NCBI RefSeq assembly: GCF_045037415.1 | Contig: NZ_CP173438.1 | Direction: 5' to 3' (one strand) | Length of the DNA stretch: 64,000 bases | DNA from: Escherichia coli | GTDB lineage: Bacteria > Pseudomonadota > Gammaproteobacteria > Enterobacterales > Enterobacteriaceae | In this document: piece by piece, positions 3,326 through 39,610 of the stretch | Layout of the letters: every line of letters starts with the position of its first letter | Numbering within the stretch: position 1 is the first letter of the stretch | The notes under the pieces: generated by a model | The model's database searches: none | The model's input: only the letters and a program-made list of their open reading frames with translations | What the model was told of the DNA's origin: nothing | Position numbers and translations under genes: made by a program

Positions 3326-3339
3326 TATCCATCCTCCAT

Positions 3340-3420: not shown

Positions 3421-3535
3421 GAAACGGAGCGGCACCTCTTTTAACCCTTGAAGTCACAGCCCGTTTCGAGAGTTTCTCAGCTCGAATAACTAAAGCCAAC
3501 GTGAACTTTTGCGGATCTCCAGGATCCGCTTTTTT
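3421..3535 (+). ncRNA. oxyS: OxyS small regulatory RNA
   Basis: Sequence begins gaaacggagcggcacctcttttaacccttgaagtca and ends with hairpin gcggatctccaggatccgc plus T-tract (3511..3537); divergent from oxyR. Confidence 0.85.
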
Positions 3536-4965: not shown

Positions 4966-5025
4966 AACTCTGTTTCCTTATTTTGAAATTCAATGCCGGA
5001 AAGCTGCGCCTCCGGCCAACAAAAC

Positions 5026-5802
5026 TTAAGCTAAAATCCGCGTCCCCATCGGCATACCGTTAAACAGTGCCGGAAGCTGTTCCGCATGACGCCAGGAGGC
5101 GATATCTACCGGACGGCCCAACGTGCGCGCAGCATCCAGCGCCGCGTTCACTTTCACAATCATGCCGTCAGTAATAATGCCCTGCTCAATCAGTTGTTCT
5201 GCTTTCGCGGCGGTCATTTCGGCAATACGTTGCCCTTTGCCGTCGAGAATGCCGCTGACGTCAGAGAGCAAAATCAGATCCGCGCCCAGCGTTGCCGCCA
5301 GCGCCGTCGCCGCCTGGTCGGCATTGACGTTCATCAGTTGCCCTTCGTCTGTTACGCCAATGGAGCTGACCACCGGCAGATAACCGTTCTCCAGCAAACT
5401 GTTGATAAGCTTAGGCGAACCTGGCTGCGCCAGTCCAACATGGCCTAACTCTTCATCAAGCTGGGTCACTTTGATGCTGTCGCCGTCACCGAGAAACAAA
5501 CCTACGGCCGCAATCTGATGTTTCTTCGCCCATGCCAGCAGGGTTTTATTTGCCGTTCCCGCCAGTGCTCCGGTGATAATGTCTATCTGATCCGCAGGCG
5601 TCACCCGCAGGCCATTTTTCTTTTTCACCGGCAGATTCAGCCCTTTCATCAGCTCATCCACCACACAACCGCCGCCGTGCACAATCACCAGCGGACGCTG
5701 ATGTGACTCGCGATAATTCACCAGTGCGCTAAACAGACGTTCCAGCGCCTCTTCACTATCCAGCAGTACGCCACCCAGTTTGATAATTAATGGATTCATC
5801 AT
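5026..5802 (-). CDS. argB: acetylglutamate kinase
   Basis: Track ORF trimmed to [24 protein letters not shown] (258 aa). Confidence 0.93.
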
Positions 5803-5809
5803 TGCACCC

Positions 5810-6814
5810 TTAAATAAGAGACTGCGTTTCCGCATAGCCGAAACGAATATTGGCGCACTGCACCGCTTGTGCCGCCGCGCCTTTCAGTAAGTTGTCTTCG
5901 GTCGCCACAATAATCAGATGCTCGCCCTGAACGGCAAAACCGATATCGCAGAATGGCAGTCCAACGACATTTTTCAGCGCCGGAACGCCTTTGTCATACA
6001 GCCGCACCAGTGGTTTATGGGCATACGCCTGCTGTAACGCTTGCGCCACTTGCACCTGGCTCACACCCGGTTTCAGGCGGCAGGTAATGGTTTCGAGAAT
6101 GCCGCGCGGGAAATTGCCCAGATGCGGGGTGAAGATAACGTCAGCACCGAGGTGTGTGGCGATCTCTGGTTGATGGCGATGGGTAAAGACGCCATACGGT
6201 TGCAGGCTAACTTCACAAAAACTATTTGAAATCGCTGCCTTACGTCCTGCACCGCTCACGCCGCTGGTGGCGTTGATCACCGGCCACTGATTGAGGTCAA
6301 GAAGATCGGCATCAATCAACGGTTTCAGCGCCAGCTGTGCTGCCGTCGGATAACAGCCTGGCACGGCAATCAAGTTCGCTTCTTTTAATTTATTACCGCA
6401 CCACTCCGCCAGACCGTAGGCTGCCTGTTCCAGCAGTTCCGGGTATTGATGGGTAAAGCCGTAATATTTTTCATAGAAGGCGACATCGTTAACACGAAAC
6501 GCGCCGGAAAGGTCGAACACCACACAGCCTGCTTCAAGAAATTGCGGCGCTAAATCGTGGCTGACTTCATGGGCGGTGGCGAGAAACACCACGTCCACCC
6601 CTGGGCTAAACTCGCCGATATCCGACATCGGCTGCAACGGCAGATCAACGATGCCTTTTAGCTGCGGATGCAAATCGGAGATTAACTTTCCCGCATCATT
6701 GCTTTGCGCTGAAACAGTCAAAGCGGTTATGTTCATATGCGGATGGCGATTTACATAGGTCACTAGCTCTGCGCCAGCGTAGCCACTGGCACCCACAATC
6801 AGCGTATTCAACAT
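5810..6814 (-). CDS. argC: N-acetyl-gamma-glutamyl-phosphate reductase
   Basis: 334-aa [21 protein letters not shown]... Confidence 0.95.
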
Positions 6815-6904
6815 CGGGGCTATTCACCTTCTTATGTCTGGTTGCCAGGTTAAACGTAAAACATTCACCTTACGGCTGGTGGGTTTTATTACGCTCAACG
6901 TTAG

Positions 6905-6945
6905 TGTATTTTTATTCATAAATACTGCATGAATATTGATACTAT
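6905..6945. promoter_or_regulatory. ARG-box operator region of divergent argE/argCBH promoters
   Basis: tttattcataaatactgcatgaatattgatact contains tandem TGAAT/ATTCA ARG-box-like half sites between the argC and argE starts. Confidence 0.45.
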
Positions 6946-6967
6946 CATGACCAGAGGTGTGTCAACA

Positions 6968-8119
6968 ATGAAAAACAAATTACCGCCATTTATCGAGATT
7001 TACCGTGCTCTGATTGCCACACCTTCAATAAGCGCCACGGAAGAGGCACTCGATCAAAGCAATGCAGATTTAATCACTCTGCTGGCGGACTGGTTTAAGG
7101 ATTTAGGCTTCAATGTGGAAGTGCAGTCTGTGCCAGGAACTCGCAACAAATTTAATATGCTGGCCAGTTGCGGACAGGGGGCTGGCGGTTTGTTGCTGGC
7201 GGGGCATACCGATACGGTGCCATTTGATGACGGACGCTGGACGCGCGATCCATTTACGTTGACGGAGCATGACGGCAAGCTTTACGGCTTAGGCACCGCC
7301 GACATGAAAGGCTTTTTTGCGTTTATCCTTGATGCGCTACGCGATGTCGACGTCACGAAGCTTGCAAAACCGCTCTACATTCTGGCGACTGCCGATGAAG
7401 AAACCAGTATGGCCGGAGCGCGTTATTTTGCCGAAACTACCGCCCTGCGCCCGGATTGCGCCATCATTGGCGAGCCAACGTCGCTGCAACCGGTACGCGC
7501 ACATAAAGGCCACATCTCAAATGCCATTCGAATTATGGGTCAGTCGGGCCACTCCAGCGATCCGTCGCGCGGGGTTAACGCTATCGAACTGATGCACGAC
7601 GCCATCGGCCATATTTTGCAATTGCGCGATAACCTGAAAGAACGCTATCACTATGAAGCGTTTACCGTGCCATACCCCACACTCAACCTCGGGCATATTC
7701 ACGGCGGCGACGCCTCTAACCGTATTTGCGCTTGTTGTGAGTTGCATATGGATATTCGTCCGCTGCCAGGCATGACACTCAATGAACTTAATGGTTTGCT
7801 CAACGATGCATTGGCTCCAGTGAGCGAACGCTGGCCGGGTCGTCTGACGGTCGACGAGCTGCACCCGCCGATCCCTGGCTATGAATGCCCACCGAATCAT
7901 AAACTGGTTGAAGTGGTTGAGAAATTGCTCGGAGCAAAGACCGAAGTGGTGAATTACTGTACCGAAGCGCCGTTTATTCAAACGTTATGCCCGACGCTGG
8001 TTCTGGGGCCTGGCTCAATTAATCAGGCTCATCAGCCTGATGAATATCTGGAGACGAGGTTTATCAAGCCCACCCGCGAACTGATCACCCAGGTGATTCA
8101 CCATTTTTGCTGGCATTAA
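6968..8119 (+). CDS. argE: acetylornithine deacetylase
   Basis: Track ORF 6929..8119 trimmed to [26 protein letters not shown] (383 aa). Confidence 0.93.
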
Positions 8120-8136
8120 AACGTAGGCCAAACAAT

Positions 8137-8174
8137 GTCGGATGCGATGCTTGCGCATCTTATCCGACCTACAC
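8137..8174. repeat. REP element
   Basis: gtcggatgcgatgcttgcgcatcttatccgacctaca, REP-type palindrome downstream of argE. Confidence 0.7.
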
Positions 8175-8420
8175 CTTTGGTGTTACTCGAGGCGATTTTT
8201 TAACATTCCCATAAGTTACGCTTATTTAAAGCGTCGTGAATTTAATGGCGTAAATTCCTGCTATTTATTCGTTTGCTGAAGCGATTTCGCAGCATTTGAC
8301 GTCACCGCTTTTACGTGGCTTTATAAAAGACGACGAAAAGCAAAGCCCGAGCATATTCGCGCCAATGCGACGTGAAGGATACAGGGCTATCAAACGATAA
8401 GATGGGGTGTCTGGGGTAAT

Positions 8421-11072
8421 ATGAACGAACAATATTCCGCATTGCGTAGTAATGTCAGTATGCTCGGCAAAGTGCTGGGAGAAACCATCAAGGATGCGTT
8501 GGGAGAACACATTCTTGAACGCGTAGAAACTATCCGTAAGTTGTCCAAATCTTCACGCGCTGGCAATGATGCTAACCGCCAGGAGTTGCTCACCACCTTA
8601 CAAAATTTGTCGAACGACGAGCTGCTGCCCGTTGCGCGTGCGTTTAGTCAGTTTCTGAACCTGGCCAACACCGCTGAGCAATACCACAGCATTTCGCCGA
8701 AAGGCGAAGCTGCCAGCAACCCGGAAGTGATCGCCCGCACCCTGCGTAAACTGAAAAACCAGCCGGAACTGAGCGAAGACACCATCAAAAAAGCAGTGGA
8801 ATCGCTGTCGCTGGAACTGGTCCTCACGGCTCACCCAACCGAAATTACCCGTCGTACACTGATCCACAAAATGGTGGAAGTGAACGCCTGTTTAAAACAG
8901 CTCGATAACAAAGATATCGCCGACTACGAACACAACCAGCTGATGCGCCGCCTGCGCCAGTTGATCGCCCAGTCATGGCATACCGATGAAATCCGTAAAC
9001 TGCGCCCAAGCCCGGTAGATGAAGCCAAATGGGGCTTTGCCGTAGTAGAAAACAGCCTGTGGCAAGGCGTACCGAATTACCTGCGCGAACTGAACGAACA
9101 ACTGGAAGAGAACCTCGGCTACAAACTGCCCGTCGAATTTGTTCCGGTACGTTTTACCTCGTGGATGGGCGGTGACCGCGACGGCAATCCGAACGTCACT
9201 GCCGATATCACCCGCCACGTCCTGCTACTCAGCCGCTGGAAAGCCACCGATTTGTTCCTGAAAGATATTCAGGTTCTGGTTTCTGAACTGTCGATGGTTG
9301 AAGCCACCCCTGAACTGCTGGCACTGGTTGGCGAAGAGGGTGCCGCAGAACCGTATCGCTATCTGATGAAAAACCTGCGTTCTCGCCTGATGGCGACACA
9401 GGCATGGCTGGAAGCGCGCCTGAAAGGCGAAGAACTGCCAAAACCAGAAGGTCTGCTGACACAAAACGAAGAACTGTGGGAACCGCTCTACGCTTGCTAC
9501 CAGTCACTTCAGGCGTGTGGCATGGGTATTATCGCCAATGGCGATCTGCTCGACACCCTGCGCCGCGTGAAATGTTTCGGCGTACCGCTGGTGCGTATTG
9601 ATATCCGTCAGGAGAGCACCCGCCATACCGAAGCGCTGGGCGAGCTGACCCGCTACCTCGGTATCGGCGACTACGAGAGCTGGTCAGAAGCCGACAAACA
9701 GGCGTTCCTGATCCGCGAACTGAACTCCAAACGTCCGCTTCTACCGCGCAACTGGCAACCAAGCGCCGAAACGCGCGAAGTGCTCGATACCTGCCAGGTG
9801 ATTGCCGAAGCGCCGCAAGGCTCCATTGCCGCCTACGTGATCTCGATGGCGAAAACGCCGTCCGACGTGCTGGCTGTCCACCTGCTGCTGAAAGAAGCGG
9901 GTATCGGGTTTGCGATGCCGGTTGCTCCGCTGTTTGAAACCCTCGATGACCTGAACAACGCCAACGATGTCATGACCCAGCTGCTGAATATCGACTGGTA
10001 TCGCGGCCTGATTCAGGGCAAACAGATGGTGATGATTGGCTATTCCGACTCAGCAAAAGATGCGGGCGTGATGGCAGCTTCCTGGGCGCAATATCAGGCA
10101 CAGGATGCATTAATCAAAACCTGCGAAAAAGCGGGTATTGAGCTGACGTTGTTCCACGGTCGCGGCGGTTCCATTGGTCGCGGCGGCGCACCTGCCCATG
10201 CGGCGCTGCTGTCACAACCGCCAGGAAGCCTGAAAGGTGGCCTGCGCGTGACCGAACAGGGCGAGATGATCCGCTTTAAATATGGTCTGCCAGAAATCAC
10301 CGTCAGCAGCCTGTCGCTGTACACCGGGGCGATTCTGGAAGCCAACCTGCTGCCACCGCCTGAGCCGAAAGAGAGCTGGCGTCGCATTATGGATGAACTG
10401 TCAGTCATCTCCTGCGATCTCTACCGTGGCTACGTACGTGAAAACAAAGATTTTGTGCCTTACTTCCGCTCCGCTACGCCGGAACAAGAATTGGGTAAAC
10501 TGCCGTTGGGTTCACGTCCGGCGAAACGTCGCCCGACCGGCGGCGTCGAGTCGCTGCGCGCCATTCCGTGGATTTTTGCCTGGACGCAAAACCGCCTGAT
10601 GCTCCCCGCCTGGCTGGGTGCAGGTACGGCGCTGCAAAAAGTGGTCGAAGATGGCAAACAGAGCGAGCTGGAAGCCATGTGCCGCGATTGGCCATTCTTC
10701 TCGACGCGTCTCGGCATGCTGGAGATGGTCTTCGCCAAAGCAGACCTGTGGCTGGCAGAATACTATGACCAACGCCTGGTCGACAAAGCACTGTGGCCGT
10801 TAGGTAAAGAGTTACGCAATCTGCAAGAAGAAGACATCAAAGTGGTGCTGGCGATTGCCAACGATTCTCACCTGATGGCCGATCTGCCGTGGATTGCAGA
10901 GTCTATTCAGCTACGGAATATTTACACCGACCCGCTGAACGTATTGCAGGCCGAGTTGCTGCACCGCTCCCGCCAGGCAGAAAAAGAAGGCCATGAACCG
11001 GATCCTCGCGTCGAGCAGGCGTTAATGGTCACTATTGCCGGGATTGCGGCAGGTATGCGTAATACCGGCTAA
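8421..11072 (+). CDS. ppc: phosphoenolpyruvate carboxylase
   Basis: 883-aa [28 protein letters not shown]..., ends GMRNTG. Confidence 0.97.
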
Positions 11073-11254
11073 TCTTCCTCTCCTGCAAACCCTCGTGCTT
11101 TTGCGCGAGGGTTTTCTGAAATACTGCTGTTCTAACACCCTCGTTTTCAATATATTTCTGTCTGCATTTTATTCAAAATCTGGATATCCCTTCAGATATC
11201 CTTAAGGAATTGTCGTTACATTCGGCGATATTTTTTTCAAGACAGGTTCTTACT

Positions 11255-12988
11255 ATGCATTCCACAGAAGTCCAGGCTAAACCCCTTTTTAGCTGGAAAG
11301 CCCTGGGTTGGGCACTGCTCTACTTTTGGTTTTTCTCTACTCTGCTACAGGCCATTATTTACATCAGTGGTTATAGTGGCACTAACGGCATTCGCGACTC
11401 GCTGTTATTCAGTTCGCTGTGGTTGATCCCGGTATTCCTCTTTCCGAAGCGGATTAAAATTATTGCCGCAGTGATCGGCGTGGTGCTATGGGCGGCCTCT
11501 CTGGCGGCGCTGTGCTATTACGTCATCTACGGTCAGGAGTTCTCGCAGAGCGTTCTGTTTGTGATGTTCGAAACCAACACCAACGAAGCCAGCGAGTATT
11601 TAAGCCAGTATTTCAGCCTGAAAATTGTGCTTATCGCGCTGGCCTATACGGCGGTGGCAGTTCTGCTGTGGACACGCCTGCGCCCGGTCTATATTCCAAA
11701 GCCGTGGCGTTATGTTGTCTCTTTTGCCCTACTTTATGGCTTGATTCTGCATCCGATCGCCATGAATACGTTTATCAAAAACAAGCCGTTTGAGAAAACG
11801 TTGGATAACCTGGCATCGCGTATGGAGCCTGCCGCACCGTGGCAATTCCTGACCGGCTATTATCAGTATCGTCAGCAACTAAACTCGCTAACAAAGCTAC
11901 TGAATGAAAATAATGCATTGCCGCCGCTGGCTAATTTCAAAGATGAATCGGGTAACGAACCGCGCACCTTAGTGCTGGTAATTGGCGAATCGACCCAGCG
12001 TGGACGCATGAGCCTGTACGGTTATCCGCGTGAAACCACGCCGGAGCTGGATGCGCTGCATAAAACCGATCCGAATCTGACCGTGTTTAATAACGTGGTT
12101 ACGTCTCGTCCGTACACCATTGAAATCCTGCAACAGGCGCTGACCTTTGCCAATGAAAAGAACCCGGATCTGTATCTGACGCAGCCGTCGCTGATGAACA
12201 TGATGAAACAGGCGGGTTATAAAACCTTCTGGATCACCAACCAGCAGACAATGACCGCCCGCAATACGATGCTGACGGTATTTTCGCGCCAGACCGACAA
12301 GCAGTACTACATGAACCAGCAACGTACGCAGAGTGCGCGTGAATACGACACCAACGTGCTGAAGCCGTTCCAGGAAGTGCTGAAGGACCCTGCGCCGAAG
12401 AAACTGATCATCGTTCATCTGCTGGGTACGCATATCAAGTACAAGTACCGTTATCCGGAAGATCAGGGCAAATTTGACGGTAATACAGAGCATGTTCCAC
12501 CGGGATTAAACGCAGAAGAGCTGGAGTCATATAATGATTATGACAATGCTAACCTGTACAACGATCACGTGGTTGCCAGCCTGATTAAAGACTTTAAAGC
12601 GACCGATCCGAACGGTTTCCTGGTTTATTTCTCTGACCACGGTGAAGAGGTTTACGACACGCCGCCGCACAAAACTCAGGGGCGTAATGAAGACAATCCG
12701 ACGCGTCATATGTACACCATTCCGTTCCTGCTGTGGACGTCAGAAAAATGGCAAGCGACTCATCCGCGTGATTTCTCACAGGATGTTGATCGTAAATACA
12801 GCCTGGCGGAACTGATCCACACCTGGTCAGATTTGGCGGGCTTATCTTACGACGGTTACGATCCAACCCGTTCAGTGGTGAATCCGCAGTTCAAAGAAAC
12901 TACCCGCTGGATTGGTAACCCGTATAAGAAAAACGCACTGATCGATTACGACACTCTGCCGTATGGCGATCAGGTGGGTAATCAGTAA
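11255..12988 (+). CDS. eptC: phosphoethanolamine transferase (LPS core modification)
   Basis: Track ORF trimmed to MHSTEVQAKPLFSWKALGWALLYFWFF (577 aa); membrane N-terminus plus sulfatase-like domain. Confidence 0.9.
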   Translation: MHSTEVQAKPLFSWKALGWALLYFWFFSTLLQAIIYISGYSGTNGIRDSLLFSSLWLIPVFLFPKRIKIIAAVIGVVLWAASLAALCYYVIYGQEFSQSVLFVMFETNTNEASEYLSQYFSLKIVLIALAYTAVAVLLWTRLRPVYIPKPWRYVVSFALLYGLILHPIAMNTFIKNKPFEKTLDNLASRMEPAAPWQFLTGYYQYRQQLNSLTKLLNENNALPPLANFKDESGNEPRTLVLVIGESTQRGRMSLYGYPRETTPELDALHKTDPNLTVFNNVVTSRPYTIEILQQALTFANEKNPDLYLTQPSLMNMMKQAGYKTFWITNQQTMTARNTMLTVFSRQTDKQYYMNQQRTQSAREYDTNVLKPFQEVLKDPAPKKLIIVHLLGTHIKYKYRYPEDQGKFDGNTEHVPPGLNAEELESYNDYDNANLYNDHVVASLIKDFKATDPNGFLVYFSDHGEEVYDTPPHKTQGRNEDNPTRHMYTIPFLLWTSEKWQATHPRDFSQDVDRKYSLAELIHTWSDLAGLSYDGYDPTRSVVNPQFKETTRWIGNPYKKNALIDYDTLPYGDQVGNQ

Positions 12989-13008
12989 TTATCAGCCAGA
13001 TGTTATTT

Positions 13009-13092
<84 letters not shown>

Positions 13093-13213
13093 TACAAGTC
13101 GACTGAAACTGCCGCAATGTTTACATCTCACTCCCATCAGGCCACACTTTTCAGGTGGCCTTTTTTCATAATGCCAGTTACTGTTTTCCCGTCTACATAC
13201 CTAAGGGAATAAC

Positions 13214-14065
13214 ATGTATCACGACGTCAGCTATCTGCTCTCCCGCCTGATCAACGGCCCGCTGTCCCTGCGCCAGATTTACTTTGCCAGCAGCAACGGC
13301 CCGGTGCCCGATCTTGCGTATCAGGTCGATTTTCCACGTCTGGAAATTGTGCTGGAAGGTGAGTTTATTGATACCGGCGCTGGAGCAGCGTTAGTTCCCG
13401 GCGATGTGCTGTACGTCCCTGCTGGTGGCTGGAATTTTCCACAATGGCAAGCCCCCGCCACGACCTTTAGCGTGCTATTTGGCAAACAGCAACTCGGCTT
13501 CAGCGTCGTGCAATGGGATGGCAAACAATATCAAAATCTGGCGAAGCAACACGTCGCCCGACGCGGCCCACGCATTGGTTCTTTTCTGCTACAAACGCTC
13601 AATGAAATGCAAATGCAGTCGCAGGAGCAGCAAACGGCCAGACTTATCGTCGCCAGCCTGCTTAGCCACTGCCGCGATTTGCTCGGCAGCCAAATACAGA
13701 CCGCCTCACGCAGCCAGGCTCTATTCGAAGCTATTCGTGATTATATCGACGAACGCTATGCCTCCGCACTTACCCGCGAATCTGTCGCACAGGCGTTCTA
13801 TATTTCGCCAAATTACCTCTCGCACCTGTTTCAAAAAACGGGGGCCATTGGTTTTAACGAATACCTGAATCACACGCGACTGGAGCACGCTAAGACATTA
13901 TTGAAAGGCTATGACCTGAAGGTAAAAGAAGTGGCGCACGCCTGCGGCTTTGTCGACAGCAACTACTTCTGCCGTCTGTTTCGTAAAAATACCGAACGCT
14001 CGCCGTCGGAATATCGTCGGCAGTACCACAGCCAACTGACAGAAAAACCGACTACTCCAGAATAA
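13214..14065 (+). CDS. yijO: AraC-family transcriptional regulator
   Basis: 283-aa ORF with C-terminal AraC-type HTH; K-12 synteny between eptC and frwD. Confidence 0.85.
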   Translation: MYHDVSYLLSRLINGPLSLRQIYFASSNGPVPDLAYQVDFPRLEIVLEGEFIDTGAGAALVPGDVLYVPAGGWNFPQWQAPATTFSVLFGKQQLGFSVVQWDGKQYQNLAKQHVARRGPRIGSFLLQTLNEMQMQSQEQQTARLIVASLLSHCRDLLGSQIQTASRSQALFEAIRDYIDERYASALTRESVAQAFYISPNYLSHLFQKTGAIGFNEYLNHTRLEHAKTLLKGYDLKVKEVAHACGFVDSNYFCRLFRKNTERSPSEYRRQYHSQLTEKPTTPE

Positions 14066-14393
14066 GATGGGTTTGCTGCGGCGCAGAAAGCACTTTGCGC
14101 ACTGCGCTCATCACCCTCTGCGGCTCACGCAGGAAAGCGTAGATGCTGCATTGCACGTAGCGACAATGTTCAAATCGCTCAGCACCGGCAAGCTCGATAT
14201 CCGTAATTAACAGCGCAACATCCGCCCGGCGGATATCCTCGTCCGCTAAACGATTCTCCGTTCCCAACGCGCCCTGAGTTTCAATGCTGACGCCCCACTT
14301 CTCTAACTGGCACAACTTTTCCAGCCGTTCCGCCGCCATATAAGTATGCGCCACGCCGCTTACGCAGGCGGTTACTGCCACCAGATATGCCAT
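14052..14393 (-). CDS. frwD: fructose-like PTS enzyme IIB component
   Basis: Track ORF trimmed to MAYLVAVTACVSGVAHTYMAAERLE (113 aa); PTS IIB motif CxSGxAHTYMAAE. Confidence 0.85.
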   Translation of the reverse strand: MAYLVAVTACVSGVAHTYMAAERLEKLCQLEKWGVSIETQGALGTENRLADEDIRRADVALLITDIELAGAERFEHCRYVQCSIYAFLREPQRVMSAVRKVLSAPQQTHLILE

Positions 14394-14394
14394 T

Positions 14395-15273
14395 TTAACC
14401 TCCCACGGTAACCTGAAATCCGGCCCGTTCTGCCATTTCACGCATCGTTGCCACATCGGCTGACGACGGCGCAGCAACCTCTTTCATCGACCATGTTTTC
14501 CCCAGCAGGCGGTATTTCGGCTCGCCGTACTGATGAAACGGTAACAGATGGATCTGCTTGATATTCAGCGGGATCAGCACGTCCAGCGCCTGCTGCATAT
14601 TCTCCCGGCTGAGCGTGAAACCAGGGATCAGCGGTAAACGCGGGATCACGTTGACACCCTCACTCACCAGCAAACGCAGATTCTCCAGCACGCGTTGCAG
14701 GTTCATCTTCACCACATCCCGCGCCTGAGCCGCATCCATAATTTTTAAATCGAACAACACTTCATCGCACAATTTCGCCAGCGGTAACAGCTTGCTGGCT
14801 GGCGCGTCTCCGGCAGTTTCGATGGCGCATGACACACCCCATAGCCGCAGTCGCTGTAAAAAACGGGTCGCAAACTCCGCCTGCATTAACACTTCGCCGC
14901 CAGAAAGCGTGACGCCGCCGCCGGACGTGCGAAAGAAAATGTCATCTTTCATCACTTCCCGTTCCAGCGCGTCAAGGCTGATATCGCGGCCAATCCGTTC
15001 AAATGCCCCGGAGGGGCATTCATCCGCATCACGCAAACATTTCGCGCAGTGCAGACATTTCGCCTCTCTGCGCACCGTCTGGATTTTGCCGGAGATCGAC
15101 TCCGGATTAGCACACCATGGGCAAAGATGCGGACAGCCTTTAAAAAAGACCACCGTACGAATGCCCTCGCCGTCATTCAGTGAATAACGCTGAATGTTGA
15201 AAATGCGCGCCACATCATCGCGGCGCGTTTCCACAACGTTACAGCTGATGCGCTGTCCGGCGGATGATGTCAT
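14395..15273 (-). CDS. pflC: glycyl-radical enzyme activating protein (PFL activase-like)
   Basis: Track ORF trimmed to MTSSAGQRISCNV...; radical-SAM CPHLCPWCANPE motif (292 aa). Confidence 0.9.
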   Translation of the reverse strand: MTSSAGQRISCNVVETRRDDVARIFNIQRYSLNDGEGIRTVVFFKGCPHLCPWCANPESISGKIQTVRREAKCLHCAKCLRDADECPSGAFERIGRDISLDALEREVMKDDIFFRTSGGGVTLSGGEVLMQAEFATRFLQRLRLWGVSCAIETAGDAPASKLLPLAKLCDEVLFDLKIMDAAQARDVVKMNLQRVLENLRLLVSEGVNVIPRLPLIPGFTLSRENMQQALDVLIPLNIKQIHLLPFHQYGEPKYRLLGKTWSMKEVAAPSSADVATMREMAERAGFQVTVGG

Positions 15274-17536
15274 CCTGGATCTCCTTCGACAGTTCGACAA
15301 AGAAGGCGCTGTATCCGGCAACGCGCACCACCAGCCCGGCATAATCTTGTGGGCGCTGTTGCGCTTCCCGTAACGTGTCGGCGTTCACCACGTTAAACTG
15401 AATATGCTGCAACTTAAGCTGGGTAAACGCCCGTAAGAAGTCGGCCAGTTTGCGTAATCCCGCTTCACCTTCGAGGGTCGCCGGAGTGAATTTCACGTTC
15501 AGCAATGTACCGTTAGAAAGCAGTGTGTTATCGAGCTTACTGACTGATTTCAGTACCGCCGTTGGTCCTTGTGCGTCCTGACCCAGCATGGGTGACAAGC
15601 CACCGTCTGCCAGTTGCTCTCCGGCAAAGCGACCGTCTGGCGTCGCGCCAACCACCGCTCCCAACGGGACATGAGCAGAAACGGTATACGATCCCGGCGT
15701 GAAGTAGCCGCCGCGCGGGTTCTGGTATTTTTCCACTTCTTTGCAGTAGTGGCGTAACAGTTCGGCGCTAATGTTATCCACCTCGTCGATATCGTTACCG
15801 TATTTCTCGAAGCGGTTAATTAAGCGAGCGCGGACTTTTTCGCCTTCTGGCGTGGCGAAGTTGGCTTTTAATACCGACAGCAATTCGTCAAAACTTAAAC
15901 GCTGTTGATCAAAAATCATCCCTTTCAACGCATGGAGAGAATCGCTCAGGTTGGCGATACCGATCCCCTGTACGCCGGAGAAGTTATAACGCGCGCCGCC
16001 ATCGGTAATATCGCGACCTTTTTCCAGACAATCGCTGATAAAAGACGAGAGTAGCGGTACAGGTGCCCAGTCGCGATGGCCGATATCACAAATATTGCTG
16101 CCCTCAACCATCAGGGTGATGTAGTGGCTGATCTTGGCGCGGATCTGTTCCAGTAAACCTTCATAAGTCAGCGCAGCGTTGCCTTCATTTTCATGCAGGC
16201 AGATTTCCATCACTTTCAGCAGGTTAAACATCGCGATGTCATGCAAGCCGTAGGTTCTGCCGGGAATAGATAATTCCACACAGCCCACTACGGAATAGTC
16301 GCGCGCATCTTCCAGCAAAACGCCACGGTTGAGGAACGCTGGCACTACCACTTCATCGTTAAAGATTTGCGGAATACCGGTGCCGAGGCGAATGGTTTCT
16401 GCGGTTTTCATCAGGAACGGCGTGTCGATCAAGGCGTTAGTGCGCACGCCGAGGTTCGGTTGCGGTAATTGCACGCTTTGATAAGCGTCAAGGCAAAGGA
16501 ACGAAAGCACGTTCACCGCGCTACGTCCGTTCTCGGTTAACCCGCCGAGCAGTGCGGTATAGCCGGTAGGGAAACCGGCGAAATAACGCGCGCTACTGGT
16601 GGAGCGCAACAGCACGATGTCGTTGCATTTCACCCATAAAGATTCGAGCAGTTCTTTCAGGAATGCCGGATCTTCGCCCTGGGTTAATGATGTCTGATAG
16701 AACGGCAACATATACTGGTCGAAGCGCCCCAACGATAGCGAACTGGCGTTGGATTCGTATTGCAGAATGATGTTCATGTACCAGAATAACTGGCACGCCT
16801 GCCAGAACGTCTGCGGCTTATGTTCGGCGTTATGGCGGGAGATCTCCGCAATAGTCAGCAATTCTTCGCGACGCGGGCCATCAGTGCAGCTTGCCGCCAT
16901 CGTTTCCGCCAGTTCGGCGTAACGCAAAATATGTTTCTGCGAGGCTTCCAGCAGTAACAGCGCTGCCTGATAAAAGTGATTCTCCGGCTGTTGCTGACAA
17001 TGTTGCTGCATCTGTGCCACCAGCTCCCCCAGCCCGTGATTCAGCAGGCGCGGGTAATCAATAATAATGTGCCCCTGGCCTTTATCCGTCTGGTTGATGC
17101 TGAAAATCTGCGTGCTGGTCGCGGCTTTTACTTCATCCGTCATCTGCCCGTTGATGAAATCTTTCATCGAACGTTTTTCCCAGTACGGGAACAACTCTTC
17201 GCGGTAGATACGTTTATCTTCTTCGCTGATAGCAAAGCGGTCCTGCGGACGCGTCGGGAATTGATCCAGTTCTTTCAGCAGCCAGTAAGGGTCCATTTCC
17301 GGCGACATAATCCCGGCGCGTGGTTTTACGGTGCGGTTACCGGCAATCAGTTCTTCATCACGAATCGAAATTTCAACGTGTTCAAGGATATACGCTGTTG
17401 CTTTCGCCCGACGCATTATCACCGGCTCCCCTTCGGTTTGCCGATGGCTGGCGGTATAAAGCAACGCCCGCTCCAGCGAGATTTCACGGGTATTGGCAAA
17501 CAGTGCAGTTTTGAGGCGAGAGATACGATTCGTCAT
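15239..17536 (-). CDS. pflD: glycyl-radical enzyme (pyruvate formate-lyase-like)
   Basis: 765-aa ORF; C-terminal RVAGYSAFF glycyl-radical motif. Confidence 0.92.
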   Translation of the reverse strand: MTNRISRLKTALFANTREISLERALLYTASHRQTEGEPVIMRRAKATAYILEHVEISIRDEELIAGNRTVKPRAGIMSPEMDPYWLLKELDQFPTRPQDRFAISEEDKRIYREELFPYWEKRSMKDFINGQMTDEVKAATSTQIFSINQTDKGQGHIIIDYPRLLNHGLGELVAQMQQHCQQQPENHFYQAALLLLEASQKHILRYAELAETMAASCTDGPRREELLTIAEISRHNAEHKPQTFWQACQLFWYMNIILQYESNASSLSLGRFDQYMLPFYQTSLTQGEDPAFLKELLESLWVKCNDIVLLRSTSSARYFAGFPTGYTALLGGLTENGRSAVNVLSFLCLDAYQSVQLPQPNLGVRTNALIDTPFLMKTAETIRLGTGIPQIFNDEVVVPAFLNRGVLLEDARDYSVVGCVELSIPGRTYGLHDIAMFNLLKVMEICLHENEGNAALTYEGLLEQIRAKISHYITLMVEGSNICDIGHRDWAPVPLLSSFISDCLEKGRDITDGGARYNFSGVQGIGIANLSDSLHALKGMIFDQQRLSFDELLSVLKANFATPEGEKVRARLINRFEKYGNDIDEVDNISAELLRHYCKEVEKYQNPRGGYFTPGSYTVSAHVPLGAVVGATPDGRFAGEQLADGGLSPMLGQDAQGPTAVLKSVSKLDNTLLSNGTLLNVKFTPATLEGEAGLRKLADFLRAFTQLKLQHIQFNVVNADTLREAQQRPQDYAGLVVRVAGYSAFFVELSKEIQDDIIRRTAHQL

Positions 17537-17586
17537 GAGGAACTCCTGTGGGAAAGCGAACCCGCCCTTGCGGGCGGGATAAGAAC

Positions 17587-17907
17587 TTAAGCGGTTTGTG
17601 CCAGGTGAGCTTCAATTTTGCTCATAATGGCGTCAGCACGCTTTACCGCGTCGCTGATGTTGACACGCACGATAGTCTTGCCAGCAAAACGCTCTTCAAA
17701 TTTGATGCCGATATCTTTGGTCAAAATCACCATATCGGCGCTTGCCACGTCTTCCGCAGTCAGTTCATTTTCCAGACCAATCGACCCCTGGGTTTCTACT
17801 TTTACTTCCCAGCCTTTCGCTTTCGCGGCGCTTTCCAGCGCCTCTGCCGCCATATAAGTATGGGCAACACCTGAAGGACATGCGGTTACTGCGATAATTT
17901 TCGTCAT
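17587..17907 (-). CDS. frwB: fructose-like PTS enzyme IIB component
   Basis: 106-aa ORF MTKIIAVTACPSGVAHTYMAAEALE. Confidence 0.9.
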   Translation of the reverse strand: MTKIIAVTACPSGVAHTYMAAEALESAAKAKGWEVKVETQGSIGLENELTAEDVASADMVILTKDIGIKFEERFAGKTIVRVNISDAVKRADAIMSKIEAHLAQTA

Positions 17908-17921
17908 GGCTCGTTCCTCAA

Positions 17922-19001
17922 TTAATTAATTTCAAAATCCAGATCCAGGTCGTCTTCCTTCTCTTCAGTTGAAGACCCATTTTTACGCGCCAGACTTTTC
18001 AGCACGTTCACGCAGACTGCCGTCACAACCGCCCCGACAGCCACTGCCGCGATGTAACCCAACTTACCTTCAACCACCGGCAGCACAATCAGACCACCCC
18101 AGCCTGCATAGCACTGCGCACCGACCAGCGCCGCAGTTACCGCACCACAAACTGAACCGACCATGATGGAAGGAATGACACGCAGCGGATCGGCAGCGGC
18201 GAAAGGAATCGCCCCTTCAGTAACGCCAACACAGCCCATCACCAGTGCCGCCTTGCCGGTTTCGCGCTCTTCTGCGGAGAAATTTTTACGACCAATCAGC
18301 GTCGCCAGCCCCATCCCCAGCGGTGGAACACAAATCCCAACAGCGGCAATAGCCACCACGGTATAAACACCCTGAGCAACGCAAATCAGCATGAAGGCAT
18401 AGGCCACTTTGTTAACCGGGCCGCCCATATCGAACGCCAGCATCAGACCCATGATCACCGCCAGCATAACAATGCTGCCCTGCTGCATCCCCTGAAGCCA
18501 CTGGGTCAGGCTGTTGGTCAACGCCCCCACCGGCTCGCCCAGCCCCCACATCATGACGCCAGCGGTAATCAGTGTGCCGACGATTGGAATGATGAAGATT
18601 GGCATTACCGAGCGCAGAACTTTATGCACTGGAATTTTCTTCAGGTAATGCACCACGATGCCGCCGATAATCCCGGCGATCAGCGCACCAAAGAAGCCCG
18701 CGCCAAAGCTGTTACCAACCCAGGCACCGATAGCGCATGGAGCCAGCGCAGAACGTTCTGCAATGGAATAACCGATGTAAGCGGCGAGGAAAGGCACCAT
18801 CAGCGTCAAACCTGCAACGCCGATATCAAACAGTTTTTTCAGATTCGGATCGGCTACGGCATCCGGCACTGCGCCTTTGCCATACAACATGACGGAAACC
18901 GCCAGCAAAATACCGCCCGATACCACGAAGGGAATCATGTGTGAAACGCCCGTCATTAAATGCTGACGGGTATTTTTCAGGATCTGCACCAACTCATTCA
19001 T
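17922..19001 (-). CDS. frwC: fructose-like PTS enzyme IIC component
   Basis: 359-aa polytopic membrane ORF; synteny. Confidence 0.9.
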   Translation of the reverse strand: MNELVQILKNTRQHLMTGVSHMIPFVVSGGILLAVSVMLYGKGAVPDAVADPNLKKLFDIGVAGLTLMVPFLAAYIGYSIAERSALAPCAIGAWVGNSFGAGFFGALIAGIIGGIVVHYLKKIPVHKVLRSVMPIFIIPIVGTLITAGVMMWGLGEPVGALTNSLTQWLQGMQQGSIVMLAVIMGLMLAFDMGGPVNKVAYAFMLICVAQGVYTVVAIAAVGICVPPLGMGLATLIGRKNFSAEERETGKAALVMGCVGVTEGAIPFAAADPLRVIPSIMVGSVCGAVTAALVGAQCYAGWGGLIVLPVVEGKLGYIAAVAVGAVVTAVCVNVLKSLARKNGSSTEEKEDDLDLDFEIN

Positions 19002-19309
19002 AAGCTGCTCCCGGGCTTGCGAAAGCCCATGTCCATATTTTTGATGGAAGAAACAATAGGCAATCGCAGGCGGAGCAAACAGTGGATAAAAAGGCCATTT
19101 ACTGGACTTTTGTAATATCAGTACAAAAATGCGATCCGCCTCATAACTTGCGATAATCCGGAAGTACGCCGCAAAACGGCGTCTTGTGAGACGCGTCGCA
19201 AATTGACGGTTACATTACATTTGTCCAGCTTTTGGCAGATTTGTCACATGGCAGGCCGTTGCCGTGCGCTCTTATCCTGTAAACAGAAAACCGTACCGGG
19301 AGAAAGGCA

Positions 19310-21811
19310 ATGGCCCTGATTGTGGAATTTATTTGTGAGCTACCTAACGGCGTCCATGCGCGTCCGGCAAGCCACGTTGAAACGCTGTGTAATACTTTTT
19401 CATCACAAATTGAGTGGCATAACCTGCGCACTGACCGCAAGGGCAACGCCAAAAGCGCCCTTGCGCTGATTGGCACCGATACGCTGGTGGGCGATAACTG
19501 CCAGTTACTGATTTCCGGGGCCGACGAACAGGAAGCGCACCAGCGTTTAAGCCAATGGCTGCGCGATGAATTCCCCCACTGCGACGCACCGCTGGCGGAA
19601 GTAAAATCTGACGAACTGGAACCACTGCCGGTTTCACTGACCAATCTGAATCCGCAAATTATCCGCGCTCGCACCGTGTGCAGCGGTAGCGCAGGCGGCA
19701 TTCTGACGCCGATCTCTTCTTTAGATCTCAATGCGCTGGGTAATCTTCCCGCAGCCAAAGGCGTTGACGCCGAACAATCCGCACTGGAAAACGGTCTGAC
19801 GCTGGTACTGAAAAACATAGAGTTTCGTCTGCTGGATAGCGACGGTGCTACCAGCGCGATTCTGGAAGCGCACCGATCCCTGGCTGGCGATACTTCCCTG
19901 CGCGAACATTTACTGGCAGGTGTCAGCGCCGGATTAAGCTGCGCCGAAGCGATTGTTGCCAGTGCGAATCACTTTTGCGAAGAGTTCGCCCGTTCCAGCA
20001 GCAGTTACCTGCAAGAACGTGCCCTGGACGTACGCGACGTCTGCTTCCAGTTACTCCAGCAAATCTACGGTGAGCAACGCTTCCCGGCACCGGGCAAACT
20101 GACGCAGCCCGCCATTTGTATGGCTGATGAACTGACCCCCAGCCAGTTCCTCGAACTGGATAAAAATCATCTCAAAGGTCTGTTACTGAAAAGTGGCGGC
20201 ACCACATCACATACGGTGATCCTTGCCCGTTCGTTCAACATTCCGACGCTGGTAGGTGTGGATATTGATGCCCTTACTCCGTGGCAGCATCAGACGATTT
20301 ATATCGACGGCAACGCAGGGGCGATTGTGGTTGAGCCAGGGGAATCCGTGGCCCGTTATTATCAGCAAGAAGCCCGCGTACAGGACGCTCTGCGTGAGCA
20401 ACAGCGTGTCTGGCTGACCCAGCAAGCGCGTACCGCTGACGGTATCCGCATTGAAATTGCCGCTAACATCGCTCACTCCGTGGAAGCGCAGGCCGCATTC
20501 GGCAATGGTGCGGAAGGCGTTGGTTTGTTCCGCACTGAAATGCTCTATATGGATCGCACCAGTGCACCGGGTGAAAGCGAGCTGTACAACATCTTTTGTC
20601 AGGCGCTGGAGTCTGCCAACGGACGCAGCATTATTGTGCGCACTATGGACATTGGTGGTGACAAACCCGTTGATTATCTGAACATTCCCGCAGAAGCTAA
20701 CCCGTTCCTCGGTTATCGCGCGGTGCGTATTTATGAAGAATACGCGTCGTTGTTTACCACACAACTACGATCGATCCTGCGCGCCTCTGCTCACGGCAGC
20801 CTGAAAATCATGATCCCGATGATCTCCTCAATGGAAGAGATCTTATGGGTGAAAGAAAAACTGGCGGAAGCCAAACAGCAACTGCGTAACGAACACATTC
20901 CGTTTGATGAGAAGATCCAGCTCGGCATCATGCTGGAAGTGCCGTCGGTGATGTTCATCATCGATCAATGCTGCGAAGAGATTGATTTCTTTAGTATTGG
21001 TAGTAATGACCTGACGCAATATCTACTGGCAGTGGATCGCGATAACGCTAAGGTGACTCGTCACTACAACAGCCTGAATCCGGCCTTCTTGCGGGCGCTC
21101 GATTACGCCGTGCAGGCGGTGCATCGCCAGGGCAAATGGATTGGTCTGTGCGGTGAACTGGGAGCGAAAGGTTCCGTGCTGCCGTTGCTGGTCGGTTTAG
21201 GGCTGGATGAACTCAGCATGAGCGCACCATCAATTCCGGCGGCGAAAGCGCGGATGGCGCAACTTGATAGCCGTGAGTGCCGCCAGTTGCTCAACCAGGC
21301 AATGGCCTGCCGTACTTCGCTGGAAGTGGAACACCTGCTGGCGCAATTCCGCATGACCCAACAGGACGCACCGCTGGTCACCGCCGAGTGCATCACACTG
21401 GAAAGCGACTGGCGCAGCAAAGAAGAAGTGCTCAAAGGCATGACCGATAACCTGCTGCTGGCGGGCCGCTGCCGCTATCCGCGTAAACTGGAAGCCGACT
21501 TGTGGGCGCGCGAGGCCGTTTTCTCTACCGGACTGGGCTTTAGTTTCGCCATTCCCCACAGTAAATCGGAACACATTGAGCAATCCACCATCAGCGTAGC
21601 GCGTCTGCAAGCGCCAGTGCGCTGGGGCGATGATGAAGCGCAATTCATCATTATGTTAACCCTGAACAAACACGCCGCGGGCGATCAACATATGCGCATT
21701 TTCTCGCGCCTCGCTCGTCGCATCATGCACGAAGAATTCCGTAATGCGCTGGTTAACGCCGCCTCTGCCGACGCTATCGCCAGCCTGCTGCAACATGAAC
21801 TGGAACTGTAA
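19310..21811 (+). CDS. ptsA: multidomain PTS protein (HPr-EI-IIA fusion)
   Basis: 833-aa [27 protein letters not shown] (HPr-like N-terminus), central enzyme I domain, C-terminal IIA. Confidence 0.92.
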
Positions 21812-21822
21812 AAGGAAACATC

Positions 21823-22485
21823 ATGGAACTGTATCTGGACACCGCTAACGTCGCAGAAGTCGAACGTCTGGCACGCATATTCCCGATTGCCGGGGTGACA
21901 ACTAACCCGAGCATTATCGCTGCCAGCAAGGAGTCCATCTGGGAAGTGCTGCCGCGCCTGCAAAAAGCGATCGGTGATGAGGGCATTCTGTTTGCTCAGA
22001 CCATGAGCCGCGACGCGCAGGGTATGGTGAAAGAAGCGAAACGCCTGCGCGACGCTATTCCGGGCATTGTGGTGAAAATTCCGGTAACCTCTGAAGGTCT
22101 GGCAGCAATTAAAATGCTGAAGAAAGAAGGCATTACTACGCTGGGAACCGCAGTGTACAGCGCCGCGCAAGGATTACTGGCGGCGCTGGCTGGAGCCAAA
22201 TACGTTGCTCCATACGTTAACCGCGTAGATGCCCAGGGCGGTGACGGCATTCGTACTGTACAGGAGTTGCAAGCGTTACTGGAAATGCATGCGCCAGAAA
22301 GCATGGTGCTGGCTGCCAGCTTTAAAACACCACGTCAGGCGCTGGATTGTTTGCTGGCAGGATGTGAATCCATCACACTGCCCTTAGATGTAGCGCAACA
22401 AATGCTTAACACCCCTGCGGTAGAGTCAGCTATAGAGAAGTTCGAGCACGACTGGAATGCCGCATTTGGCACTACTCATCTCTAA
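21823..22485 (+). CDS. fsaB: fructose-6-phosphate aldolase 2
   Basis: 220-aa [35 protein letters not shown]. Confidence 0.93.
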
Positions 22486-22495: not shown

Positions 22496-23599
22496 ATGGA
22501 CCGCATTATTCAATCACCAGGTAAATACATCCAGGGCGCAGATGTAATTAATCGTCTGGGCGAGTACCTGAAGCCACTGGCGGAACGCTGGTTAGTGGTG
22601 GGTGACAAATTTGTTTTAGGTTTTGCTCAATCCACTGTCGAGAAAAGCTTTAAAGATGCTGGACTGGTAGTAGAAATTGCGCCGTTTGGCGGTGAATGTT
22701 CGCAAAATGAGATCGACCGTCTGCGTGGCATCGCGGAGACTGCGCAGTGTGGCGCAATTCTCGGTATTGGTGGCGGAAAAACCCTCGATACTGCCAAAGC
22801 ACTGGCACATTTCATGGGTGTTCCGGTAGCGATCGCACCGACTATCGCTTCTACCGACGCACCGTGCAGCGCATTGTCTGTTATCTACACCGATGAGGGT
22901 GAGTTTGACCGCTATCTGCTGTTGCCAAATAACCCGAATATGGTCATTGTCGACACCAAAATCGTCGCTGGCGCGCCCGCGCGTCTGTTAGCGGCGGGTA
23001 TTGGCGATGCGCTGGCAACCTGGTTTGAAGCGCGTGCCTGTTCCCGTAGCGGCGCGACCACCATGGCGGGTGGCAAGTGCACTCAGGCAGCGCTGGCACT
23101 GGCTGAACTGTGCTACAACACCCTGCTGGAAGAAGGCGAAAAAGCGATGCTTGCCGCCGAACAGCATGTAGTGACTCCGGCGCTGGAGCGCGTGATTGAA
23201 GCGAACACCTATTTGAGTGGCGTTGGTTTTGAAAGCGGCGGGCTGGCGGCGGCACACGCGGTACATAACGGCCTGACCGCTATCCCGGACGCGCATCACT
23301 ATTATCATGGTGAAAAAGTGGCATTCGGTACGCTGACGCAGCTGGTTCTGGAAAACGCGCCGGTGGAGGAAATCGAAACCGTAGCTGCGCTTAGCCATGC
23401 GGTAGGTTTGCCAATAACTCTCGCTCAACTGGATATTAAAGAAGATGTCCCGGCAAAAATGCGAATTGTGGCAGAAGCGGCATGTGCAGAAGGTGAAACC
23501 ATCCACAACATGCCTGGCGGCGCGACGCCAGATCAGGTTTACGCCGCACTGCTGGTAGCCGACCAGTATGGTCAGCGTTTCCTGCAAGAGTGGGAATAA
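22496..23599 (+). CDS. gldA: glycerol dehydrogenase
   Basis: Track ORF trimmed to [25 protein letters not shown] (367 aa). Confidence 0.93.
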
Positions 23600-23610
23600 T
23601 CTACTCCAAA

Positions 23611-23633
23611 CTCCCGGCTTGTCCGGGAGTTTG
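23611..23633 (+). terminator. hairpin terminator after gldA
   Basis: ctcccggcttgtccgggag followed by ttt. Confidence 0.5.
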
Positions 23634-23644: not shown

Positions 23645-23743
23645 GCCTGATGCGCTACGCTTATCAGGCCTACGCAATCTCTGCAATATAGTAAATTTAC
23701 GTACTTTTGTAGACCGGATAAGGCGTTCACGCCGCATCCGGCA
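23645..23743. repeat. REP pair (BIME)
   Basis: gcctgatgcgctacgcttatcaggcctac and gtagaccggataaggcgttcacgccgcatccggca. Confidence 0.8.
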
Positions 23744-30852: not shown

Positions 30853-30984
30853 AAACAGTCCCTTTCAGTGAGATAAAGGATTGCTACATTACGTTCTGAA
30901 AGACTTATTTATGTGAGAGTAATCACATCCGCAGGGGATAGTTGCCGGACAAAATCAACGACCTTGTGAAATCGTTGGTGATAT

Positions 30985-36996: not shown

Positions 36997-37248
<252 letters not shown>

Positions 37249-37252
37249 CTAA

Positions 37253-39610
<2,358 letters not shown>

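Follow-up and report, generated by a model that had tools for sequence, protein, structure and literature searches.

An Escherichia coli locus linking a fructose-family phosphotransferase system to the glycyl radical enzyme PflD: a probable route for 1,5-anhydromannitol utilization

The 64-kb stretch of Escherichia coli chromosome analyzed here (contig NZ_CP173438.1; called the window below) carries a divergent locus that combines Frw, a fructose-family phosphotransferase system (PTS), with the glycyl radical enzyme PflD and its radical S-adenosylmethionine (SAM) activase, PflC. One operon, frwC-frwB-pflD-pflC-frwD, is on the minus strand and the other, ptsA-fsaB-gldA, is on the plus strand, and the AraC-family gene yijO adjoins them. 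Together these genes very probably (at a rough probability of 0.88) constitute a system for the anaerobic utilization of 1,5-anhydro-D-mannitol. The central enzyme, PflD, can be assigned by orthology to a published enzyme as the lyase that opens the ring of 1,5-anhydromannitol-6-phosphate. The locus is already explained in the literature, and the substrate of PflD is no longer a new question.

Identity of PflD

According to Ma et al. (JACS 2024, 146:26187, doi 10.1021/jacs.4c07718), whose results are taken here from the passages of a review that cover them (PMC12441222), PflD ring-opens 1,5-anhydromannitol-6-phosphate to give 1-deoxyfructose-6-phosphate, and its paralogue YbiW forms the same product from 1,5-anhydroglucitol-6-phosphate. 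The same passages state that 1,5-anhydroglucitol and 1,5-anhydromannitol are made into their 6-phosphates "via a phosphotransferase system", and that E. coli and many gut bacteria are thereby able to grow on both compounds (PMC12441222). A sequence-only reading of this DNA had described a glycyl radical pair of unknown substrate, and had named a published biochemical assignment as what would overturn that description; given the assignment reported in these passages, the premise was two years out of date. It had also held that the substrates of PflD and of the Frw PTS were not firmly established, and here the two halves part: the first gives way to the published assignment (PMC12441222), and the second is not clearly refuted, as the review passages do not use the name Frw.

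PflD in the window (15239–17536, minus strand; 765 residues) matches the K-12 protein, the crystallized 1,5-anhydromannitol-6-phosphate lyase (PDB 8yjo, "Probable dehydratase PflD"), at 753 of 765 residues (98.4%) and is encoded at the same chromosomal locus; none of the 12 differences falls within the Cys or Gly loops. Structures are also available for YbiW (8id7 and 8yjn) and for a PflD homologue from Streptococcus dysgalactiae (8id0). The catalytic Cys419 and Glu421 lie within a GCVE motif (residues 418–421), and the radical-bearing Gly741 lies within RVAGY (residues 738–742). The protein is recognized by the Pfam PFL-like (PF02901, 698 bits) and Gly_radical (PF01228, 108 bits) models, as well as by TIGR01774 (1340 bits, cut-off 678).

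The label "formate C-acetyltransferase" persists in PGAP and NCBIfam release 20, and of the named homologues in a list of 240 nearly all carry it; the K-12 RefSeq name is "putative formate acetyltransferase 2". It stands for an alternative in which PflD is a second pyruvate/2-ketobutyrate formate-lyase ("formate C-acetyltransferase 2") that makes acyl-CoA and formate, with PflC as its activase. Along with the PGAP/RefSeq product name and the pyruvate formate-lyase (PFL)-type names of the homologues, a score of 1718 bits against the "formate C-acetyltransferase" equivalog NF007437 speaks for this alternative. However, the GCVE motif contains one Cys and a Glu, and the Cys-Cys pair of PflB (ACCVS), which is needed for PFL chemistry, is absent, so the database name is unsupported. 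PflD shares 24% identity with PflB and 38% with YbiW, and against the true-PFL equivalog TIGR01255 it reaches 120 bits, compared with a cut-off of 994, in a match limited to the C-terminal 190 residues. The nearest solved structures outside the orthologues are those of B12-independent glycerol and diol dehydratases, and the activity reported in the review passages is a different one (PMC12441222). The formate-lyase alternative is effectively refuted. A comparison of active sites had been suggested in the sequence-only reading, and it places the PflD motif with the radical eliminases, without the Cys-Cys pair of pyruvate formate-lyase. Public annotation lags behind (PflD is given as "formate C-acetyltransferase" and ptsA, in PGAP, as "ptsP"), with the consequence that readers who rely on annotation alone keep flagging the locus as unexplained.

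In a six-way alignment, the Cys loop reads VVGCVELSIPG in PflD, AIGCIETAVGG in YbiW, VGCVE[TLI] in the Firmicute homologues and IACCVSPMIVG in PflB, and the GCVE of PflD aligns with GCVEP of the B12-independent glycerol dehydratase of Clostridium butyricum (1r8w). HMMER scores against PflD are 645 bits for this glycerol dehydratase, over the full length, 479 bits for YbiW, approximately 430–485 bits for choline trimethylamine (TMA)-lyases and 117 bits for PflB, of which only the C-terminal part aligns in phmmer. Judged from these relationships, PflD is a member of the dehydratase/eliminase (PFL2/glycerol dehydratase) clade of glycyl radical enzymes. The glycerol dehydratase and the propanediol dehydratase/choline TMA-lyase clade share its fold and its radical-elimination architecture, and in both 1r8w and PflD the Glu is two residues past the Cys. 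They differ in the reaction and in the genomic partners. Members of that clade act on small 1,2-diols or amino-alcohols, from which they eliminate water or an amine, whereas PflD, as described in the review passages, cuts the ring ether C–O bond of a phosphorylated hexitol analogue (PMC12441222); the glycerol dehydratase clade is accompanied by microcompartment or diol-pathway genes, and PflD by a PTS and an aldolase. PflB and its activase PflA (1h16) resemble PflD and PflC in the RV[AS]GY motif, the barrel fold and the use of a radical-SAM activase, but PflB has a Cys418-Cys419 pair and no Glu, and PflA lacks a ferredoxin-like insert that is present in PflC.

The paralogous YbiW/YbiY-FsaA cluster (b0823–b0825; structures 8id7 and 8yjn) has the same GC[VI]E and RVAGYSAFF loops, an adjoining activase, a divergent fsa paralogue and, according to the review passages, the same product, 1-deoxyfructose-6-phosphate (PMC12441222). 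The substrate of YbiW is the C2 epimer of the PflD substrate. Unlike the frw locus, the ybiW cluster has no dedicated PTS, gldA or AraC-family gene; the sugar phosphatase gene ybiV adjoins it instead. Its ybiY and ybiW genes are separated, by their coordinates, by a 5-nt gap, rather than overlapping as pflD and pflC do.

Gene neighbourhoods of PflD homologues

The PflD family forms one cluster at 50% identity, and diversity was gained by a second query with the 8id0 sequence. The neighbourhoods compared here are those of homologues 60–63% identical to E. coli PflD. In S. dysgalactiae, genes encoding EIIA-2, EIIB and EIIC are followed by those for PflD, its activase, Fsa (fructose-6-phosphate aldolase) and an iron-containing alcohol dehydrogenase (Fe-ADH). 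In a Bacillus species, the order is DeoR, EIIC, an epimerase-family gene, EIIA-2, EIIB, PflD, activase, Fsa, HPr and Enzyme I (EI), and Exiguobacterium has the same order without HPr and EI. The Enterococcus locus contains a PRD regulator, EIIA-2, EIIB and EIIC and, a few genes on, DeoR, PflD and the activase. In Clostridium, DeoR, PflD, the activase and Fsa are followed by a GFO/IDH/MocA oxidoreductase and a second glycyl radical enzyme with its activase, with no adjoining fructose-type PTS. In Xylocopilactobacillus, DeoR and Fsa are kept, the activase is apparently split and no PTS adjoins. Across the nine loci examined, a fructose-family PTS is located beside PflD in seven and Fsa in eight, and in Firmicutes a GldA-type dehydrogenase is often found alongside.

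Because the same partners recur in differing gene orders and in two phyla, there is good evidence for a PTS, a radical enzyme and an aldolase that would act jointly. This recurrence also bears on a second alternative, in which Frw, as a (cryptic) transporter of fructose, belongs to a cluster for the anaerobic breakdown of that sugar and is linked to PflD incidentally. FrwC, FrwB, FrwD and the EIIA domain of PtsA do all belong to the fructose PTS family, and earlier work, as cited in the part of PMC6643234 that concerns PtsA, puts PtsA in a putative PTS of anaerobic fructose catabolism. However, fructose-type IIA, IIB and IIC components adjoin PflD homologues in both Proteobacteria and several Firmicutes, and such a recurrent adjacency in varied gene orders favours a functional link. 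Moreover, a fructose phosphate could be handled without a radical enzyme or an Fsa/GldA branch, and the published pathway, in the review passages that give it, begins with PTS phosphorylation of an anhydro-polyol (PMC12441222). A fructose transporter linked to PflD by accident is improbable, and 1,5-anhydromannitol utilization remains the preferred function.

In Edwardsiella tarda (locus 4033–13389), the module consists of fsa-ptsA, frwC-frwB-pflD-pflC-frwD and an AraC-family gene, without gldA, and is flanked by unrelated genes, with pgsA to one side and ato genes to the other. Its PflD is 90% identical to that of E. coli, more than would seem to fit vertical descent in these two genera. Given this value and the differing chromosomal context, the module has probably moved horizontally, together with its regulator gene.

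Other genes were noted near the Firmicute clusters. On the Clostridium sp. contig, directly downstream of the PflD cluster and beside a mannose-type PTS, positions 13089–17243 encode the second glycyl radical enzyme (801 residues), its activase and a DeoR protein; this enzyme may be the YbiW-type (1,5-anhydroglucitol) counterpart. A gene of the NAD-dependent epimerase/dehydratase family is located between EIIC and EIIA in Bacillus (6130–7020) and Exiguobacterium (6190–7095), and a GFO/IDH/MocA oxidoreductase gene is found near the PflD cluster in both (1841–2887 and 2398–3444, respectively). The epimerase and the oxidoreductase may supply the pathway with a precursor, for example 1,5-anhydrofructose; an oxidoreductase acting as a 1,5-anhydrofructose reductase would provide 1,5-anhydromannitol. 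The Clostridium and Bacillus GFO/IDH/MocA proteins match the Sinorhizobium 1,5-anhydrofructose reductase (2glx and 4koa) at the family level, with E-values of approximately 1e-13 to 1e-19 that rank below those of many unrelated family members.

The Frw phosphotransferase system and the proposed pathway

The locus encodes a fructose-family PTS with its own EI and HPr, complete in its EIIC, EIIB, EIIA-2, HPr and EI components. FrwC (17922–19001, minus strand; 359 residues) is the fructose-family EIIC membrane permease (NF007787, 720 bits; TIGR01427, PTS_IIC_fructo, 301 bits). FrwB (17587–17907, minus strand; 106 residues; NF007783, 210 bits; TIGR00829, 138 bits) is a fructose-family EIIB protein, and FrwD (14052–14393, minus strand; 113 residues; NF007747, 225 bits against a cut-off of 153; TIGR00829, 88 bits) is a second one. 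The active-site Cys10 is kept in both, within TACPSG in FrwB and TACVSG in FrwD (residues 8–13 in each). PtsA (19310–21811, plus strand; 833 residues) is a fusion of HPr, EI and EIIA(Fru), with Pfam domains PTS-HPr (PF00381), PEP-utilisers_N, PEP-utilizers, PEP-utilizers_C (PF02896) and PTS_EIIA_2 (PF00359). His16, His301 and His750 of PtsA are all intact, and with Cys10 of FrwB and of FrwD every phosphoryl-transfer residue is present in the window.

The FruA/FruB PTS (TC 4.A.2) is built from components of the same families (EIIC, EIIB and EIIA), and its FruB is a comparable fusion of phosphocarrier domains. The Frw system differs in that IIC and IIB are separate proteins, two IIB genes are present and HPr, EI and IIA are fused in PtsA, which provides the system with its own Enzyme I. 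Frw is linked to a radical enzyme, whereas FruA/FruB is linked to fruK. FrwC yields no Pfam match at E ≤ 1e-5, although the fructose EIIC model of NCBIfam gives it 301 bits, and in precomputed Pfam tables PF02378 is found in some FrwC orthologues and not in others. The patchiness of these calls is a quirk of borderline detection rather than biology.

In the proposed pathway, PtsA would take a phosphate from phosphoenolpyruvate and pass it to the EIIB proteins, FrwB and perhaps FrwD. FrwC would import 1,5-anhydromannitol, with phosphorylation at O6 during transport; gene linkage is what suggests the roles of Frw and PtsA in these two steps. PflC would place the radical on Gly741 of PflD, which, via Cys419 and with Glu421 as general base, would break the ring C–O bond of 1,5-anhydromannitol-6-phosphate to give 1-deoxyfructose-6-phosphate. 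FsaB would cleave this product into glyceraldehyde-3-phosphate and hydroxyacetone, and GldA would turn the hydroxyacetone into 1,2-propanediol, reoxidizing NADH. With the frw-pflDC locus and the ybiW cluster, E. coli and many gut anaerobes would be able to ferment 1,5-anhydro-hexitols through a form of glycolysis that depends on radical chemistry and has 1,2-propanediol as its end product.

FsaB (21823–22485, plus strand; 220 residues) passes the FSA family models as fructose-6-phosphate aldolase 2 (NF009296, 384 bits, cut-off 306; TIGR00875, 352 bits) and contains Lys85 in VVKIP, which we take, from what is known of FsaA, to be the catalytic Schiff-base lysine. GldA (22496–23599, plus strand; 367 residues; NF047954, 753 bits) is an NAD-dependent L-1,2-propanediol/glycerol dehydrogenase. 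The abstract of the 2024 study reportedly has FsaA and FsaB splitting 1-deoxyfructose-6-phosphate into glyceraldehyde-3-phosphate and hydroxyacetone, and GldA converting the latter to 1,2-propanediol. The FsaB and GldA steps agree with what these enzymes are known to do and with the gene neighbourhoods described above.

A third alternative would make ptsA-fsaB-gldA mainly a dihydroxyacetone/glycerol module (the FSA and GLD pathways), functionally independent of frwCB-pflDC-frwD. GldA and Fsa do act on dihydroxyacetone, but dihydroxyacetone fails to induce fsaB and represses gldA, and PtsA has no effect (PMC6643234). Independence also sits poorly with the gene neighbourhoods: Fsa adjoins the PflD-activase pair in S. 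dysgalactiae, Clostridium, Bacillus and Exiguobacterium and is nearby in Xylocopilactobacillus, the Fe-ADH gene comes next after Fsa in S. dysgalactiae, and the fsa-ptsA unit of Edwardsiella has apparently moved along with frw-pflDC. A separate dihydroxyacetone module is very improbable.

Several points weigh against 1,5-anhydromannitol utilization as the function of the whole locus. Uptake of the compound might instead fall to a different PTS, for example the mannose system, in which case Frw would act on something related. The review passages leave the PTS unnamed (PMC12441222), and neither the papers found to cite Ma et al. 2024 nor the other results of full-text searches name the Frw substrate or the PTS concerned. 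The PflD clusters of Clostridium and Xylocopilactobacillus have no adjoining fructose-type PTS, and the K-12 ybiW-ybiY/fsaA cluster, which works with none of its own, shows that a linked PTS is not obligatory. Additionally, FrwD is without an assigned role, and the natural source of 1,5-anhydromannitol and its abundance in the gut are unclear.

The pflD-pflC overlap

The pflC gene (14395–15273, minus strand) adjoins and overlaps pflD and encodes the cognate radical-SAM activase, a protein of 292 residues that scores 628 bits against NF007483 and 264 bits against TIGR02494 (glycyl-radical enzyme activating protein). PflC contains a CX3CX2C motif at C47/C51/C54 and one auxiliary CX2CX2C motif at residues 73–79. 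The 35-nt overlap that had been reported between the two genes is exact (15239–15273, minus strand): the pflC ATG begins at 15273, the pflD TAA occupies 15241–15239, and the minus-strand sequence is GAAGGAGATCCAGGATG. The same 35-nt overlap is present in Salmonella, Edwardsiella, Citrobacter, Leclercia and Lelliottia, making six genera with Escherichia. A Shine-Dalgarno sequence for pflC, GAAGGAG (15281–15287, minus strand), lies within pflD and precedes the pflC ATG by 7 nt, and its AAG GAG codons are invariant across the six genera, whereas synonymous sites nearby vary.

The pflC ATG inside pflD is the sole canonical in-frame start common to all six genera, and in Edwardsiella there is no other start ahead of the conserved ARIFNIQRYS core. 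The variable spacer contains no stop in any of the six genera, and its single indel, of 3 nt, keeps the frame. Given the shared start, the lack of an alternative in Edwardsiella, the stop-free spacer and the invariant AAG GAG codons, the overlap is most likely real and conserved. An annotation artefact, with the true pflC start farther downstream, was considered and, as the more likely reading, was rejected on the shared ATG, the Edwardsiella gene and the in-frame spacer.

Enterobacterial PflC has an N-terminal extension of approximately 20 residues that is absent from Firmicute activases, YbiY and PflA, and this is what had raised the question of a start farther downstream. Within this extension (residues 1–21), residues 12–21 are highly variable between genera, and the extension may serve no purpose other than to bring the reading frame to a start codon within pflD. 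Translational coupling of pflD and pflC, which had been proposed from the overlap, is plausible in light of the conserved overlap and Shine-Dalgarno sequence.

Regulatory features

The two operons diverge from a 308-nt control region between frwC and ptsA (19002–19309). Three of the 22 CRP-like matches in the window fall within it, compared with approximately 0.1 expected by chance; these predicted sites are at 19130–19145, 19185–19200 (one mismatch) and 19233–19248. In the best of them, at 19185–19200 (TGTGAGACGCGTCGCA), an alignment of the E. coli, Salmonella and Edwardsiella regions shows conserved half-sites around a variable spacer. Approximately 100 nt of the control region, at about 19050–19150, form a block that is nearly invariant among the same three. 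A search of the 308-nt region for FNR-like sites, allowing up to two mismatches, found none, and a generic sigma-70 scan found no promoter there, with a locus-wide count no higher than in shuffled sequence. The sole match to an AraC-type direct repeat in the control region is a weak 12-nt pair 192 nt apart, probably due to chance.

The AraC-family transcription factor gene yijO (13214–14065, plus strand) is convergent with frwD, with a 14-nt overlap of the 3' ends. It did not figure in the sequence-only reading, and it accompanies the module in every enterobacterial locus examined; the convergent arrangement and the 14-nt overlap recur in all six enterobacterial genera, including in the differing context of Edwardsiella. 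The Pfam HTH_18 and HTH_AraC models match only the C-terminal domain of YijO, and in 2022 the protein, noted for its divergent N-terminal domain, was still among the E. coli transcription factors without a known function (PMC9308461). Its gene linkage makes YijO a candidate regulator of the module. A bolder proposal, whose chances fall somewhat short of even, joins two ideas: that YijO is a dedicated sensor of 1,5-anhydromannitol or its 6-phosphate and would activate both divergent operons, with CRP, from the conserved block of the 308-nt region, and that the extra EIIB, FrwD, has a role that is dispensable in single-IIB Firmicute systems, for example with a second substrate or in regulatory phosphotransfer. 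A literature search found no report that tests YijO as a sensor or an additional role for FrwD.

The ptsA-fsaB-gldA genes have been described as a single operon that is activated anaerobically and is not induced by dihydroxyacetone (PMC6643234). A hairpin with a perfect 11-bp stem (23607–23633, plus strand), 8 nt past the gldA stop, and the repetitive extragenic palindromic (REP)-like sequences after it (approximately 23645–23743) are likely to mark the end of this operon. On the minus strand, a scan for terminator-like elements detected a G+C-rich hairpin, CCCGCCC-GCAA-GGGCGGG (17561–17578), in the 50-nt gap between frwB and pflD. With seven G:C pairs and a GCAA loop, it has a folding energy of -18.5 kcal/mol, at a non-significant z-score of -0.83 relative to shuffled sequences. 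It could be an internal attenuator or an mRNA-stabilizing element that sets the ratio of PTS to enzyme mRNA. An Rfam scan detected no known RNA family within the frw locus.

Organization, distribution and variation of the locus

The coordinates used here come from the list of open reading frames, the RefSeq annotation and our own translation. By these, the identities given in the sequence-only reading for frwD, pflC, pflD, frwB and frwC on the minus strand and ptsA, fsaB and gldA on the plus strand are confirmed at or next to the positions it gave, and its divergent operon layout is borne out by coordinates and strands. The span that it set, 14052–21811, holds through ptsA and stops short of fsaB and gldA, which it had named and which run to 23599. 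Each protein of the locus exceeds the cut-off of an NCBIfam equivalog or subfamily model (PtsA through its EI-domain model), and all except FrwC have Pfam domains.

With the 7760 bp of 14052–21811 as query, a match is found in 5425 of 5426 complete E. coli genomes, and it covers at least 80% of the query length in 5393. The frw/pflDC/ptsA-fsaB-gldA locus is an ordinary, near-universal part of E. coli. In K-12, where PflD and PflC are b3951 and b3952, it occupies the same position with identical gene order. Differences from K-12 number 12 of 765 residues in PflD, 5 of 292 in PflC, 3 in FrwC, 1 in FrwD, 5 in PtsA, 3 in FsaB and 3 in YijO, with none in FrwB or GldA, and the frwC-ptsA intergenic region matches at 302 of 308 positions. 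No substitution affects the Cys loop, the Gly loop or the cluster motifs of the activase, and nothing of functional note distinguishes the two versions.

Positions 13024–64000 of the window are the same, base for base, as in strain SK1144. Between eptC and yijO, SK1144 carries a 1432-bp copy of the IS3-family insertion sequence IS1397 (11592–13023 of the SK1144 locus) that is absent from the window (12989–13213). In strain NR2550, ISEc52 is inserted inside the frw/pfl interval. These two copies indicate that the locus is occasionally hit by insertion sequences.

Other features of the window

The metF-metL interval (29299–32115) contains a 5'-nucleotidase/metallophosphatase gene (29299–30852, minus strand) and, divergent from it, a gene for a "hypothetical protein" (30985–32115, plus strand) whose 3' end overlaps that of metL. 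Between these two genes, at 30912–30927, is a perfect CRP palindrome, TGTGAGAGTAATCACA, the sole zero-mismatch match in the window. In K-12, metF and metL presumably have no genes between them.

The Rfam gathering score is reached at five places in the window, all outside the frw locus. These are the OxyS small RNA (3421–3530, plus strand), the L31 ribosomal-protein leader (37216–37268, minus strand), the ClpQY (hslVU) promoter element (41880–41937, plus strand), ES036 (55625–55666, plus strand) and naRNA4 (60737–60814, plus strand).

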